Part shown: piece by piece, positions 27,488 to 43,975 of the stretch
Layout: each line of letters begins with the position of its first letter
Position numbering within the stretch: position 1 is the stretch's first letter
Assembly: GCA_964414415.1 (NCBI GenBank)
Contig: CAYPWJ010000001.1
Span: 138,701 to 202,700 of the forward strand
Reading direction: 5' to 3'
DNA length: 64,000 bases
Source of the DNA: an uncultured Thermoplasmatales archaeon
Lineage (GTDB): Archaea > Thermoplasmatota > E2 > UBA202 > DSCA01
Position numbers and translations under genes: made by a program
The notes under the pieces: model-generated
Seen by the model: the letters and a program-made list of their open reading frames with translations, nothing else
What the model was told of the DNA's origin: nothing
The model's database searches: none

Positions 27488-27858
27488 TTACTCCTGGCGT
27501 TTCCGGTAGTCCTCGATTGCCCTGTGCAGCCCGTCGGCAGCCAGGTTGGAGCAGTGCATCTTGACCTTGGGGAGTCCCTCCAGCGCGTCGGCGACGTCTT
27601 CGTTGCTCACCTGCATCGCCTCGTCGAGTGTCATGCCCTTCGCCAGCTCTGTTATCATGCTGCTGGTGGCGATGGCGGCGGCGCAGCCAAATGTCTTGAA
27701 CTTGATGTCCTTCAGTCGGTTGTCTTCCACCTTTATGTGGATGGTCATGACGTCGCCACAGATCGGGTTGCCGACCTTGCCGACGCCGTCGGGATCCTCG
27801 AGTTCCCCCATATTGCGTGGATTGCGGAAGTGTTCCATGACTTTGTCGCTGTACATGC

Positions 27859-27862
<4 letters not shown>
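27488..27862 (-). CDS. iscU: Fe-S cluster assembly scaffold IscU/NifU-like
   Basis: Conserved Cys ligands GNPICGD, FKTFGCAAA, HCSNLA. Confidence 0.9.
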
Positions 27863-29013
<1,151 letters not shown>

Positions 29014-29017
29014 CATC

Positions 29018-29152
29018 TCAATCGCCTCGTCCCACATCCATCATCCGCTGCAGAGGTTGGCGTGCCTCCTTCACGAGCCGCTTGGACAGGGAAACCGTTG
29101 GGATTAACGTCTCCATACTTTTTAAAACTTTTTCCAGCGTTATCTTTTTCAT
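29018..29152 (-). pseudogene. nadA: quinolinate synthase NadA, C-terminal fragment (separated from its body by an IS insertion)
   Basis: Translation MKKITLEKVLKSMETLIP... matches the conserved NadA C-terminus that follows the CPNM motif. Confidence 0.7.
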
Positions 29153-29154
29153 GT

Positions 29155-29172
29155 GGTGGTTACAGATTTGCC
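29155..29172. repeat. IS terminal inverted repeat (left)
   Basis: GGTGGTTACAGATTTGCC. Its reverse-complement partner is at 30673..30690. Confidence 0.7.
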
Positions 29173-29380
29173 GGTTTGTGGTCTGTATTTTCCATTGTGC
29201 AGCAGGCAAGATACAAAAGGGAGGGCGGCAAGGCTGCTGCTTTTTGGGCTGCTGGCGTCAGACAGTGCCGTCACATGTCAGCTGTGGGTAAAAATTGGGT
29301 GCCTACGCCGGGTATGGTGCTACCCCGGGCTGGATGATTGGGCGTGGATGCTTTTCCATTTTTGCTGTGACACGCTCTAT

Positions 29381-30583
29381 TTAGGTCAGATAGGCGACGC
29401 TGGTCAGGTTTTCCGTTACGCCGTTCTGCAGCCGGGTCAACGCCACCATGTTCACCGATAGCAGGCAGAGCGTCGTGTGAAAGAATGCATGCTCTGCTCC
29501 TTTCCGGGGGAGCATGCATTCAAAGCCCACGCGTTGCTTCAGATAGGAGTTGAAGCCCTCGCTCTGGTTTCGCCCCTGAGCAATCTCGCGCCGTAATTGT
29601 TCGCTCGCCTGGTAGCGGTGGACCTGATGGTTGCGAAAATAGGCGCCGACGCGTTCATATTCTTGCTTCGTGTACAGGAACTGTAGCATGTATTCGGTGT
29701 CCACGTTTGGGCGATGCCTTTTGTCTCGCCAGTATCGGCTGTATCGTTCACGTATGGCCATGGGGCTGCCCTGCTCGTTGTAGGTCCAGTGTTGCTGCGG
29801 CTTGTACAGCAGCGTCGTATCATATCCGCAGTGGGTGATGGCGATGTTCCGGTAGCTGGGATATCCGCCGTCCACGATGAGGCTGTCCAGCCGGATGTCA
29901 TTGTCCTGCAGTGCCTCGAGATGAGAGGGGAGTGCCTGTCCTTCATCGTCGTTTATCCCGAGGTCCTTGTAGGAGAGGAAGATGCCTTGGTCGGATACCA
30001 TGAGATCTTTTTTCCATCCCCAGGTCTTGTAATAGCCGCTGTACGATGCGGTGGCATCGCCACGCCTAGCGGTGATCACGGTGGCATCTTCCCGGGCCTT
30101 CACAAGTGATCTCCCATGCTTCGCCATATATCGGTCTATCTCTCGTACCACGCGGTAGAATATGTCGTCGACCATGTCCGCTAGCAGGTCGTTGATGAAG
30201 TGTCGTATGGTCTCGTAGGATGGCAGATGGTCGGGGTCGAATCCCAGGTTCTCCGCCACAGTCGGCTTGGTCTGCAGGATCCGGTAGACCTCGGTTATGT
30301 ACCGGATGCCCTGGAGCTTCATGAACAGCACCAGCCGGACACGGGCGTAGACCTCTGGTTTGATGCGTTCCAGCCGGGGGAACAGCTCCCCAAGTACCAG
30401 ATCCAGGAACCCTAGGTGGAGATGTGACAGGAACTCCGAGGTCTCCACCGGATGTTGCTCCGTGGGGGTTTCGAACAATGGGAACTGGGGTTCATCGGTG
30501 TCGAGCTCCTCGTTCAGCTTTTTTCGACAGGTTTTTAAGAGCGTGTCAATTTGTATTTCATCCCATCCCATTTTTATTCCCAC
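29381..30583 (-). CDS. DDE transposase (IS4/ISH3-family)
   Basis: 400 aa with DDE_Tnp_1-like C-terminal region (...HTTLCLLSVNMVALTRL). Lies wholly inside the IR-bounded element. Confidence 0.8.
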   Translation of the reverse strand: MGIKMGWDEIQIDTLLKTCRKKLNEELDTDEPQFPLFETPTEQHPVETSEFLSHLHLGFLDLVLGELFPRLERIKPEVYARVRLVLFMKLQGIRYITEVYRILQTKPTVAENLGFDPDHLPSYETIRHFINDLLADMVDDIFYRVVREIDRYMAKHGRSLVKAREDATVITARRGDATASYSGYYKTWGWKKDLMVSDQGIFLSYKDLGINDDEGQALPSHLEALQDNDIRLDSLIVDGGYPSYRNIAITHCGYDTTLLYKPQQHWTYNEQGSPMAIRERYSRYWRDKRHRPNVDTEYMLQFLYTKQEYERVGAYFRNHQVHRYQASEQLRREIAQGRNQSEGFNSYLKQRVGFECMLPRKGAEHAFFHTTLCLLSVNMVALTRLQNGVTENLTSVAYLT

Positions 30584-30672
30584 TCTCCCAAGCGGATGGG
30601 ATTCTCTTCTTTTTTATGGAATTTTTTGAGCGACGGCCTCGCTCTAAAACACACAGCTTTTTATATGGAGAA

Positions 30673-30690
30673 GGCTAATCTGCATCTACC
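30673..30690. repeat. IS terminal inverted repeat (right)
   Basis: The reverse complement reads GGTAGATGCAGATTAGCC. Confidence 0.7.
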
Positions 30691-31461
30691 CATGTTTGGA
30701 CATCTCGCCGTGTTCACCGGATAGAAACGCTTGCCGGGGTACTCCTCGGAGAGACGGTAGCAGAGTTCCTTTTCGGTGCCGACGATGAACTCGTCGGTTT
30801 CAGTTGCTCCGGCATGGTTTATCATACCGCCCGTTGAAAGCACCTTGTCGGCGAGGTCTATCACCTCGGGCCGGCACTCCGGATGCACCATGATCTCCGC
30901 TTTGGGATGCTGTTGCTGGAGGGACTTGATGTCGGGCGCCATGATTTTGTCGTGGGTTGGACATACGCCGGGCCACAGGATGAGGTTCGTGTCGGGGAGG
31001 AATCGCTGAGCGTAGCTGCCGAGGTGTTCGTCCGGCACGAAGATGACGTCACGCTGCGGCAGGCTCTTGATGACCTTTACGGCGTTGGAGGAGGTGCAGC
31101 AGATGTCGCTGGCGGCTTTGACCTCGGCGGTGGTGTTCACGTAGGAGATAATCGCTGCTTCGGGATGCTCTTTTTTCAACGCTTGCAGCCCGTCCACGTC
31201 TACCATCGCCGCCATCGGACATCTCGCCTCTTCATTCGGATGTACCACCGTTTTGTCGGGGTTGAGTATCTTGGCTGTTTCTCCCATGAAGTCGACGCCG
31301 CAGAAGATGATGGTTTCGGCGTCCACCTCGGTTGCTTGCATCGCCAGGCCGAGGGAGTCGCCGACATAATCAGCCGCATCCTGCACTTCGGGGCGCTGGT
31401 AGTTGTGGGCGAGGGTGACTGCGTTGCCTTCTCTTTTGAGACGCTGGACGTTTACGCCCAT
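30691..31461 (-). pseudogene. nadA: quinolinate synthase NadA, N-terminal body (aa 1-256), truncated by IS insertion
   Basis: NadA motifs (VTLAHNYQ, Cys ligands). The reading frame runs ...CPNM into the IS terminal repeat and reaches a stop after 9 foreign codons. Confidence 0.8.
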
Positions 31462-31531
31462 ATTTTAACAATTGTTATTGATATATAAATGGGTTACGGT
31501 CTGACGCAGAGAAAGGAGGAAAAAGAGCCGG

Positions 31532-41949: not shown

Positions 41950-42147
41950 TTAGCTCCGTTTTCTTTTCGTTGTGAAGTATAACAGCATTACCCCGATAGC
42001 ACCGAATAGAGAGAGCACTTCGAAACCAGGCATTCCACCATTTCCTCCATTCCCTGTACCATCTGTGCCATCGTCTCCTCCGCCCGTGGCGTCATCATCT
42101 GTATCTTCATCACCTGCTACTAAAACACTTCTTCGTATCATACTCAT
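41950..42147 (-). CDS. minimal PGF-CTERM protein (65 aa: short N-terminal hydrophobic segment, Asp/Gly/Thr-rich linker, PGF-TM-KRKR tail)
   Basis: ...GGMPGFEVLSLFGAIGVMLLYFTTKRKRS is a canonical PGF-CTERM archaeosortase sorting signal. Start at Met32 of ORF 41950..42240. Confidence 0.5.
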   Translation of the reverse strand: MSMIRRSVLVAGDEDTDDDATGGGDDGTDGTGNGGNGGMPGFEVLSLFGAIGVMLLYFTTKRKRS

Positions 42148-42391
42148 GTTTTCCTGTCTCCTCTCCGCACAAAAGAAGTAACCGTTTATAATTTTTAGGA
42201 TTTTTGCCTCATCTCGAACCGCTTCGAAACGATTTAACAAGCCATGGCGCTGGCTTCCACCTAGTTCAACGGCAGCTGACGTTCAACTATGATACTCGGA
42301 AGGCATTGTTAATATGGAGAAGCTCTATCAGACAGCCTGTGACACAGATAGGACCAATGGCCACTAAGGCCCACACGTAATCCGTGGATAC

Positions 42392-43975
42392 CTAGTTGAT
42401 TCCGTCTTTTCTCTTCAGCCATACACCGAGGGCCAGCGCCGTCACCAGCAGTCCCGTCTGTAGACCGGGGATACCTTCCCCTCCATCGTCGTCTTCTCCT
42501 GCACGTGTTTGTTCGCTTACCACGTTTGACATGGGCGAAACATTTGGAATTTCATCTGCTGTCTTCAGAGCGAAATAGTAGGTGGTATCGGCATCCAGGT
42601 CGGACACCGTATAGGTTTCCTTGTCTCCTGGCTGTTGTGGAATCGGCTGCGTGGCTGCTGGTGTAGCATCTGCCCAGCCATCGGCAGTTATCGACGTGGT
42701 GGCGTATCGTAGATCATAGCTGCTTGCAGTCCCCATCTCCATGTTGTCTCCTGGGGCAGTCCAGGTGAGCGTGACCGAGGTATTGGTAGCCTGGGTCGCC
42801 TGAAGGTCGGTTACCTTGCTCGGCCATGTTGCATCAGCGGCTGTATCGAAGAAAATGTTTCCGTCGTCTCTGCTATCCTGCCATACAATGTATGTTTGGG
42901 TGTCAGCACCTACCGCTATAGCAGGATGGCCAGCTGCTTCAGATCCATCGTTTACCTTGAAATTTTCACCAAAAGTTGTTCCTCCATCGGTTGAATTTGC
43001 GAAATAGACTGCGTCTTCGCCGCTGGAGTCATCTTGCCAGATTACAAAGATTTTTCCGCATGGATGAACTGCTATATCGTTAGGATAGCCGCCGGATAAG
43101 GTTGACGCTGAGGTGTGGCTCACATTAACACTTGATTGGAAGGAATCTGCACCATCGGTTGAACGTGTAAATCGTGCCTTTTTCAGATCTCCTTTATCGT
43201 TCCAGTAGGACATATATACTTTATCTGTTCCATATGCTGCGATGGATGGCCCGGACATGCTGTCGCCGTCCTCAACTACAACGCTGGGTCCAAACGTCGA
43301 GGCCTGATCGGTGGATTTAACAACACGTATATTGGAATCACCGAAGCCTAAACCATTATCGTAGGCTACATAAATGGTCTCATCGGAGCCAATAGCGATC
43401 GCTGGATCGCCTGGTCTGTCTTCGGGGCTGTTCACTCTGACATCTGTTCCAAATCCTTCTCCGTTTATGGATCTATCCAGAGATAGGTTTTCCAAGTGTG
43501 AGGCTGTCCATACGATGTACACATTATCTTCATAGGTGGCGATGTCGGGGTTGTCGCCCCCATGGCTGTCGCTTATTATTGTTGGATCGCTGAAGGTGTT
43601 GCCTCCATCTGTGGATTTTGTATAATAGACGTTGCCTTTATCTGCCACTGTGACATGAATATTGTCGCTGTCATCAACTGCAATAGATGGTACATATCCA
43701 TCGCTGATGTCTATGGGGTCGCTGAAGGTTTCTCCGCCGTCGGTAGACGTAGCAAAGGTTACTGCGTTCCAGGCTAGATATATGTTATCGGAGCTATCTA
43801 GTGCTATATCTGGTTTTCTTCCATACCCTGGACTGGCATGTGTGTCTGTTCCAAAGTCTTCTGCCCTCGCGTTGTGAACGTCACCGCAGAGGGTGTACAT
43901 CACGCCGATCAGCATCACAAGAACCATCACAGTTAGTACTTGTCTCTTATGGATAACTCTTTTAATTTTTTTCAC
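42392..43975 (-). CDS. secreted BNR/Asp-box repeat (sialidase-like beta-propeller) surface protein with FN3-like domain and PGF-CTERM-like anchor
   Basis: Signal peptide. Eight or more S-x-D-x-G-x-T-F/W Asp-box repeats (STDGGETF, STDGGNTF, STDQASTF, STDGADSF, STDGGTTF). C-terminal ...GIPGLQTGLLVTALALGVWLKRKDG. Lower GC than its surroundings. Confidence 0.75.
   Translation of the reverse strand: MKKIKRVIHKRQVLTVMVLVMLIGVMYTLCGDVHNARAEDFGTDTHASPGYGRKPDIALDSSDNIYLAWNAVTFATSTDGGETFSDPIDISDGYVPSIAVDDSDNIHVTVADKGNVYYTKSTDGGNTFSDPTIISDSHGGDNPDIATYEDNVYIVWTASHLENLSLDRSINGEGFGTDVRVNSPEDRPGDPAIAIGSDETIYVAYDNGLGFGDSNIRVVKSTDQASTFGPSVVVEDGDSMSGPSIAAYGTDKVYMSYWNDKGDLKKARFTRSTDGADSFQSSVNVSHTSASTLSGGYPNDIAVHPCGKIFVIWQDDSSGEDAVYFANSTDGGTTFGENFKVNDGSEAAGHPAIAVGADTQTYIVWQDSRDDGNIFFDTAADATWPSKVTDLQATQATNTSVTLTWTAPGDNMEMGTASSYDLRYATTSITADGWADATPAATQPIPQQPGDKETYTVSDLDADTTYYFALKTADEIPNVSPMSNVVSEQTRAGEDDDGGEGIPGLQTGLLVTALALGVWLKRKDGIN

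Follow-up and report, generated by a model that had tools for sequence, protein, structure and literature searches.

The locus described here lies in a 64,000-nt window (the whole stretch of DNA analysed, to which all coordinates refer) of contig CAYPWJ010000001.1 from an uncultured Thermoplasmatales archaeon. Within it, nadA is split into two fragments by a mobile element whose only open reading frame (ORF) encodes a 396-aa transposase with a DDE triad. Both nadA and the element are read on the minus strand, and the locus comprises the following features, given in that direction.

30691–31461, minus strand: nadA 5′ fragment, codons 1–257 (PF02445, E=5e-108, profile positions 2–257)
30691–30695: target-site duplication beside the left repeat, CATGT on the plus strand and ACATG on the minus strand
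29155–30690, minus strand: mobile element, 1,536 bp
30673–30690, minus strand: left terminal inverted repeat GGTAGATGCAGATTAGCC (pair I3 of the inverted-pair listing, and comparison of copies)
30572–30672, minus strand: conserved 5′ leader of the transposase gene (alignment A3 and RNAalifold)
29381–30571, minus strand: transposase gene, 396 aa from ATG (400-aa reading from the GTG at 30583)
29173–29380, minus strand: 3′ non-coding region of the element, strongly conserved over its final ~38 nt (alignment A2)
29155–29172, plus strand: right terminal inverted repeat GGTGGTTACAGATTTGCC, reading inward (inverted-pair listing and comparison of copies)
29150–29154: target-site duplication beside the right repeat, CATGT on the plus strand
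29018–29149, minus strand: nadA 3′ fragment, 43 codons (KKITLEKV...GRGD) and stop (PF02445 profile positions 258–295)

The nadA reading frame opens with the ATG at 31461 and extends to TGT CCA AAC ATG (CPNM), where it meets GGTAGATGCAGATTAGCC at 30690–30673. In its current state this 5′ ORF runs into the element as far as a stop at 30661, giving a product of 266 aa with the tail GRCRLAFSI. Removal of the element and one CATGT copy yielded an in-frame NadA of 300 aa with the junction RCPNM/KKITLEKV. Neither half contained stops or frameshifts, and their coverage of PF02445 was exactly contiguous, with nothing lost or duplicated at the protein level. An intact orthologue in a Thermoplasmatota metagenome-assembled genome (MAG; L044) aligned with the reconstructed NadA at all 300 positions without a gap, and its gene carried a single ACATG at the matching site, representing the single-copy empty site CCGAACATGAAGAAG. 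The neighbours at that locus were as in the window (LMWPc, C_GCAxxG, two small ORFs, nadA, nifS and nifU), and the shared gene order continued with a 141-aa ORF, a PUA protein and a class I tRNA synthetase. The original prediction, made from the sequence of the window, that an insertion cleanly splits nadA and that the rebuilt junction is uninterrupted was therefore borne out, and the suggested check by alignment to an intact homologue gave a gapless match.

In a genome of 60 % G+C, the insertion falls within an AT-rich patch (CCAAACATGAAAAAGATAAC), three residues after C254, the third predicted cluster-binding cysteine. All of the predicted Fe-S cysteines (C81, C167 and C254) are in the 5′ fragment; by the offset in the structure alignment, we take them to be the equivalents of the known cluster ligands of Pyrococcus NadA. 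The reconstructed protein matched the solved structures 4HHE (E=1e-85) and 1WZU over residues 4–297, and the 43 missing residues lie within the fold of solved NadA structures; 36 of the 43 were identical to the L044 orthologue. With these conserved residues lost and nine unrelated ones added, the split very probably destroys the NadA enzyme.

A real insertion that nevertheless left NadA function or NAD supply intact, through an active truncated form, cooperating fragments, salvage or a second nadA, is considered unlikely. In its favour are the retention of all three cysteines in the 5′ fragment, the undamaged state of both fragments, the ATG supplied to the 3′ fragment by the duplicated ACATG, and the fact that neither nadB nor nadC is found near nadA. 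Against it stand the conservation of the 43 missing residues (profile positions 258–295) and their position inside the solved fold. Nor was a second nadA of this lineage found: no intact allele at least 90 % identical to this nadA was present among 5.8 billion protein clusters, in which the cluster of the truncated ORF had a single member. The best intact NadA in that collection was 78 % identical and came from unrelated samples, and it was rejected as a second paralogue.

The ends of the element were established by comparison with related copies. The two terminal repeats match at 14 of 18 positions (15 of 18 in sister copies), which on its own is at chance level, dozens of similar imperfect inverted pairs being present in the same 1.7 kb. 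In BLASTN comparisons with related copies from public assemblies, however, the alignment covered exactly the bases from 30690 to 29155 and no base beyond. The copies used for the ends were L003 (92 % identical), L004 (91.6 %), and L005 and L006 (both 86 %), together with L007 and L046, which were 68 % identical over the coding part and had conserved ends. At least six further copies (L003–L007 and L046; 68–92 % identical), situated in other genomic contexts, thus lose homology at the element ends. The sequences of both terminal repeats were conserved across the clade, the first 16 nt of the left repeat being kept in copies with as little as 53–55 % protein identity. A Logan contig of 1,528 bp (L075) consisted of the element only, starting with GGTAGATAC (GGTAGAT) and ending with GTATCCACC (CCACC), which is the assembler output expected for a repeat whose flanks vary between copies. 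The boundaries are thus proven by evidence that is independent of the repeat match. The predicted 1,536-bp length, the 18-bp repeats with 14 matches and the CATGT duplication were all found again in the same places, and the suggested BLASTN check on the element gave copies ending at the same bases as the proposed ends.

Homologues of the transposase are nearly all 396 aa in length, so the GTG four codons upstream of the ATG is probably not the start. Pfam recognized only the N-terminal DUF772 (PF05598) in the window protein, at residues 82–145 of the 400-aa reading (78–141 of the 396-aa reading), and its DDE models recognized the family weakly (PF01609 in four of 22 members, PF13751 in one of 22). 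In an alignment of 22 homologues (30–93 % identity), D162, D234 and E338 were invariant and R334, N335 and K345 were also conserved, giving the signature R334-x3-E338-x6-K345. A confident AlphaFold model based on this alignment (predicted local distance difference test score, pLDDT, 88.8; predicted template-modelling score, pTM, 0.84) placed D162 in a strand (158–167), D234 just after a strand (230–232) and E338 in a helix (324–347), with approximately 100 all-helical residues separating D234 and E338. Such a predicted placement is the RNase H-like order that a DDE transposase should show. Foldseek searches of PDB with the model returned weak matches only, to generic RNase H-fold transposases and retroviral integrases (top match ISCth4, E=6.6e-4, TM score 0.34), which do not help to assign a family, and a sequence search of PDB with the family profile gave spurious matches only.

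The ratio of non-synonymous to synonymous substitution rates (dN/dS) among copies was 0.18–0.22, indicating that the gene has evolved under purifying selection as a working protein. The window transposase is full length and keeps every family-invariant residue, and the element keeps both ends. It is therefore plausible, from the intact transposase, the undamaged nadA halves and the dN/dS of approximately 0.2, that the insertion is recent and the element still mobile, as had been suggested; mobility itself we infer from these features.

The leader upstream of the transposase gene was conserved even between copies that are only 68 % identical overall. It contains a TATA-like ATATAAAA and a T5-hairpin-A6 motif, in which L062 shows one compensatory change, and its segment ATCCCATCC is complementary to GGATGGGAT in codons 2–4, just after the transposase ATG. 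Base pairing of this kind might conceal the gene start, guarding for instance against read-through that originates at the nadA promoter. That promoter looks intact, since a TTTATATAT box is present ~20–30 nt upstream of the nadA ATG (31462–31500, minus strand), and its transcripts probably continue into the element, in sense orientation for the transposase. A perfect 12-nt inverted repeat (GAATGCATGCTC/GAGCATGCATTC, 15 nt apart) was noted within the transposase coding region, towards its 3′ end (29483–29521). Rfam and tRNA scans of the window were empty.

For family placement, the references comprised nine transposases annotated as ISH3, of haloarchaeal and cyanobacterial origin, together with ISH8 (IS4), ISH11 and ISH28 (IS5-like) and ISKpn6 (IS1182-like), taken from Halobacterium pNRC100, which the plasmid collection contains, and from other records. 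When the window family was compared with the ISH3 alignment by hhalign, a narrow profile gave a probability of 5.5 % and a broad profile 86 %; as these figures disagree, all reference families were ranked by one method, in which a hidden Markov model (HMM) of the broadened family alignment (89 sequences) was scored on each reference, with hhalign probability as a second measure. The ranking was as follows.

Unnamed Thermus transposase (unassigned): 45.6 bits; hhalign 97.3 %
ISH11 (IS5-like): 41.5 bits; hhalign 96.5 %, E=7e-10, 304 columns, all catalytic residues aligned
ISH7A (ISNCY): 38.7 bits; hhalign match to the N-terminal domain only
ISKpn6 (IS1182-like): 34.3 bits; hhalign 87.9 %, N-terminal region only (residues 49–171)
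ISH28 (IS5-like): 15.9 bits; hhalign 61.8 %
Nine ISH3 references (ISH3): at most 5.5 bits; hhalign 0.3–41.8 %
ISH8 (IS4): 1.8 bits; hhalign 1.6 %

The only significant NCBIfam match of the window protein was to the IS1182 model NF033551, at 29.4 bits (E=3.7e-7) against a cutoff of 270; apart from this and a weak ISNCY match, no IS5, IS4 or other NCBIfam model matched it at E≤1. In distant family members the scores went up to 51.7 bits with the IS1182 model and to 35 bits with IS5 models, the NCBIfam cutoffs for IS5 being 110–275 bits. By these measures the element is IS5/IS1182-like and belongs to an unnamed clade, distant from both ISH11 and IS1182 and far below the family thresholds. Among annotated relatives, the highest score with the family profile was that of an unnamed 250-aa ‘transposase’ on Thermus thermophilus plasmid pTHTHE1601 (L073:1342–2094), which was also the only hit of a tblastn search with the distant family member P0335; related unclassified elements therefore occur in bacteria as well.

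The original prediction had labelled the element ISH3/IS4-like, and this label did not survive the comparison. ISH3 elements have been described as 1,225–1,500 bp long with direct repeats of 4–5 bp, a terminal consensus CRGT and a YREK motif in the variant form Y-(2)-R-(3)-E-(3)-R, whilst IS4 elements generate duplications of 8–13 bp (PMC2266710). The authentic ISH3 references behaved accordingly, having CAGTACC.../CAGTAGA... ends and the motif YxxRxxxExxxR (alignment A4), and in ISHla1 a 5-bp duplication, GTAAT. Membership of the ISH3 (or IS4) family would fit the archaeal host and the 5-bp duplication in the window, the GGT in the element ends loosely resembles the RGT of CRGT, and the broad profile aligned the catalytic residues in register with ISH3, but such membership is nonetheless very improbable. 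The window element ends in GGTAGAT.../GGTGGTT..., and as the neighbouring flank base is not C the CRGT consensus is absent; its signature is R(3)E(6)K, and at position E+4, where the ISH3 motif has R, its family carries S, N or G. The element (1,536 bp) exceeds the ISH3 size range, its relatives being 1,479–1,564 bp. Duplication length points both ways with respect to ISH3, being 5 bp for the window copy but 6 bp for four relatives and 7–8 bp for L014/L015; the 5 bp found here is short of the IS4 range. A tblastn search with the transposase against the plasmid collection, in which at least 92 records carry ISH3 elements, gave no match at E≤1e-3, an HMM of the nine ISH3 proteins scored at most 8 bits on ~270 members of the family, and ISH11 and ISKpn6 scored far above the ISH3 and IS4 references. 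By the 86 % broad-profile match ISH3 is kin of the element at the superfamily level, but it is clearly not its nearest family.

ISH11 of Halobacterium salinarum pNRC100, annotated by the Prokaryotic Genome Annotation Pipeline (PGAP) as ‘IS5-like element ISH11 family transposase’, was the best-scoring named relative; nearly the whole protein aligned, including the first D, the second D and R..E......K, and both elements have one ORF, terminal inverted repeats and an archaeal host. The ISH11 duplication of 7–8 bp is also near that of the distant members L014/L015. In contrast, ISH11 is 1,068 bp in length with a 330-aa product and GAGGGTG... ends, and the window transposase has ~45 extra residues, predicted to be all-helical, between the second D and the E. 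As judged from these alignments, the match to ISH11 is one of remote homology, not membership of a defined IS5 subgroup. The IS1182 family (e.g. ISKpn6; NF033551) shares the order of N-terminal DUF772 followed by a DDE domain, but its transposases are longer (ISKpn6 439 aa; model 488 positions) and the window score is approximately one-tenth of the family cutoff. The ISH3 family (ISH3B, ISH27, ISHla1 and cyanobacterial members) resembles the element in its archaeal hosts, single ORF, duplication of ~5 bp and broadly similar size; in sequence the likeness amounts to remote DDE-superfamily homology seen profile-to-profile only, and ends, catalytic motif and sequence similarity all differ. Tn5 transposase has a β-rich insertion domain, whilst the window transposase is predicted to have only helices in its insertion between the second D and the E, and Tn5 was not among the top PDB fold matches of the model. 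The likeness to IS4 (ISH8; Tn5/IS50) lies in the R(3)E(6)K-type signature of the last catalytic region, as defined in PMC2266710.

A HMMER scan of 1.84 billion cluster representatives identified 442 proteins at E≤1e-3, of which 113 were at E≤1e-30, indicating a small clade with no gradual transition into the very large populations of IS5, IS1182 or IS4. Named homologues were almost all ‘hypothetical protein’, with one plain ‘transposase’, and genomic matches were overwhelmingly in Thermoplasmatota MAGs, with single contigs binned as Thermococci, Micrarchaeota and Kosmotogaceae. The last of these (L008; JBNGCV010000256.1, 1,580 bp) carries a copy with 71 % protein identity on an element-sized contig, and its placement in a Kosmotogaceae bacterium is probably a binning error and not a transfer to bacteria. 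Exact look-ups of the window transposase (396-aa and 400-aa readings, and P0248) returned no record, and the exact right-repeat 18-mer had no matches in viral contigs.

The flanks of the window copy and of the other complete copies were as follows; most of the duplicated target sequences are AT-rich.

Window copy: ACATG, 5 bp
L005: TCCCGT, 6 bp
L006: ATGATA, 6 bp, offset by 2 bp (an additional CC between the right end and the duplicate)
L010: GCTAAT, 6 bp
L012: AATGTA, 6 bp
L014 (2371–3934) and L015 (278–1841), both in MAG CAYPUK01: ACGCAGAA and TAAGAGT, each copy carrying the duplicate of the other
L003, L004, L007, L013 and L046: no duplication (a near-match only in L013); short-read assemblies, in which a multi-copy repeat may have been joined chimerically

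The exchange between L014 and L015 indicates recombination between copies (e.g. inversion or translocation) or an assembly swap. In L006 (2382–3929) the transposase gene has an internal stop, and its products were called as fragments of 261 and 102 aa. Two unrelated metagenome contigs (L062:65–105 and L076:1640–1690) contained a right end, exactly 6 bp (TTATAA and ATTCTG, respectively) and then a left end, of which only the first 26 nt are present in L076. These junctions could represent tandem copies, circle junctions or insertion beside an existing end.

That a multi-copy repeat was wrongly threaded into an intact nadA during assembly is scarcely credible: although the same-population short-read contigs (L001, L002 and L043) break inside the element, 78 to ~370 bp from its edge, as expected at a repeat, and the absence of duplications from several related copies is what chimeric joins would give, three independent assemblies contain the left junction, and a random misjoin would not give a perfect 5-bp duplication at both junctions together with exact restoration of the frame, nor was an intact allele found in the protein clusters searched above. 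The truncated 266-aa ORF with its nine-residue read-through was present on an NCBI MAG contig (GCA_905333555.1) and in Logan runs ERR5414699 and ERR5414701; the NCBI contig and one Logan contig (L001 and L002) showed 100 % nucleotide identity to the window across the left junction, and L043 had the identical truncated ORF. On this body of matching sequence, the insertion is not an assembly artefact.

The favoured explanation is that an autonomous IS (insertion sequence) of a small unnamed clade, distantly related to ISH11 and IS1182 and belonging to neither ISH3 nor IS4, has inserted in nadA and very probably destroyed the enzyme; its probability is put at about 0.88. Several observations weigh against it. 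Only one copy of the element was seen in the window, and the exact window transposase (P0248) is recorded on one contig only. Five of the 11 other complete copies with both flanks lack a perfect duplication, duplication lengths within the clade span 5–8 bp, and the duplications of L014 and L015 are swapped. The clade may already carry a name in ISfinder, and the 86 % broad-profile match to ISH3 belongs on the same side.

According to the favoured explanation, the 1,536-bp IS would have transposed into the AT-rich patch of nadA, three codons after the third Fe-S cysteine. The DUF772-type N-terminal part of the transposase is presumed to be DNA-binding, and the C-terminal part would supply the catalytic core, which is RNase H-like, contains D162, D234 and E338 and has an all-helical stretch inserted between the last two of these residues. 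By analogy with other DDE elements, the transposase would bind the conserved ends GGTAGATRCAGATTAG... and ...CAAATCTGTAACCACC and join them to a target cut with a 5-nt stagger, and gap repair after the staggered cut would produce the ACATG duplication.

A broader proposal is rather improbable. Under it the element would be the exemplar of a formally undescribed IS family or subgroup, found largely in Thermoplasmatota and akin to IS5/ISH11 only at the superfamily level, with an extra helical insertion in the catalytic domain, nearly invariant 16-nt ends and a leader that masks the transposase start. The group would perhaps move via head-to-tail junctions of right inverted repeat (IRR), 6 bp and left inverted repeat (IRL), which were seen twice and would imply circle or dimer intermediates and not simple cut-and-paste, and the archaeal lineage would perhaps depend on external NAD precursors.

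Two further genes lie downstream of nadA.

27859–29037, minus strand: nifS-like cysteine desulfurase (ORF list; Aminotran_5 at the L044 locus)
27488–27862, minus strand: IscU/NifU_N-like gene (ORF list; NifU_N at the L044 locus)

The start-most codon of the nifS-like ORF overlaps the nadA stop, which suggests a probable nadA-nifS-iscU operon exposed to polar effects. The element has the same orientation as this operon, and it may be polar on nifS and iscU or transcribe into them. Directly after the insertion site, the nadA 3′ fragment contains a 29-nt AT-rich run (AAGATAACGCTGGAAAAAGTTTTAAAAAG; 29118–29146, minus strand) that is identical in the orthologous gene, which is 79 % identical overall. 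The run resembles an archaeal TATA region and, speculatively, could act as an internal promoter for nifS and iscU. Elsewhere in the window, two ORFs at 41950–43975 (minus strand), one of which codes for 527 aa and has BNR-like and fibronectin type III domains, had a third-position G+C of 0.37–0.47, compared with 0.7–0.85 in most real-looking ORFs elsewhere, and are probably of foreign origin judging by this composition.

A scan of 39 window ORFs, each 150 aa or longer, detected no NadB, NadC, aspartate dehydrogenase (nadX) or salvage domains, in agreement with the earlier remark that nadB and nadC are not visible nearby. From the probable loss of NadA and this survey, which covers the window only, we infer that the lineage may be auxotrophic for NAD. 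Metabolic models should give the lineage no credit for de novo quinolinate synthesis unless this is checked, and the two nadA pieces are to be annotated as one pseudogene. Disruption of a gene by an IS is routine biology, and the only mildly new point is the small, uncurated, archaeon-centred clade to which the element belongs. This clade escapes the family-level models tried: no NCBIfam cutoff was reached, the Pfam DDE matches were weak or absent, and DUF772 was the only consistent Pfam match. It is for this reason a candidate for IS-catalogue curation, and annotation of the 396-aa ‘hypothetical protein’ as a DDE transposase would correct several hundred unannotated homologues in Thermoplasmatota MAGs.

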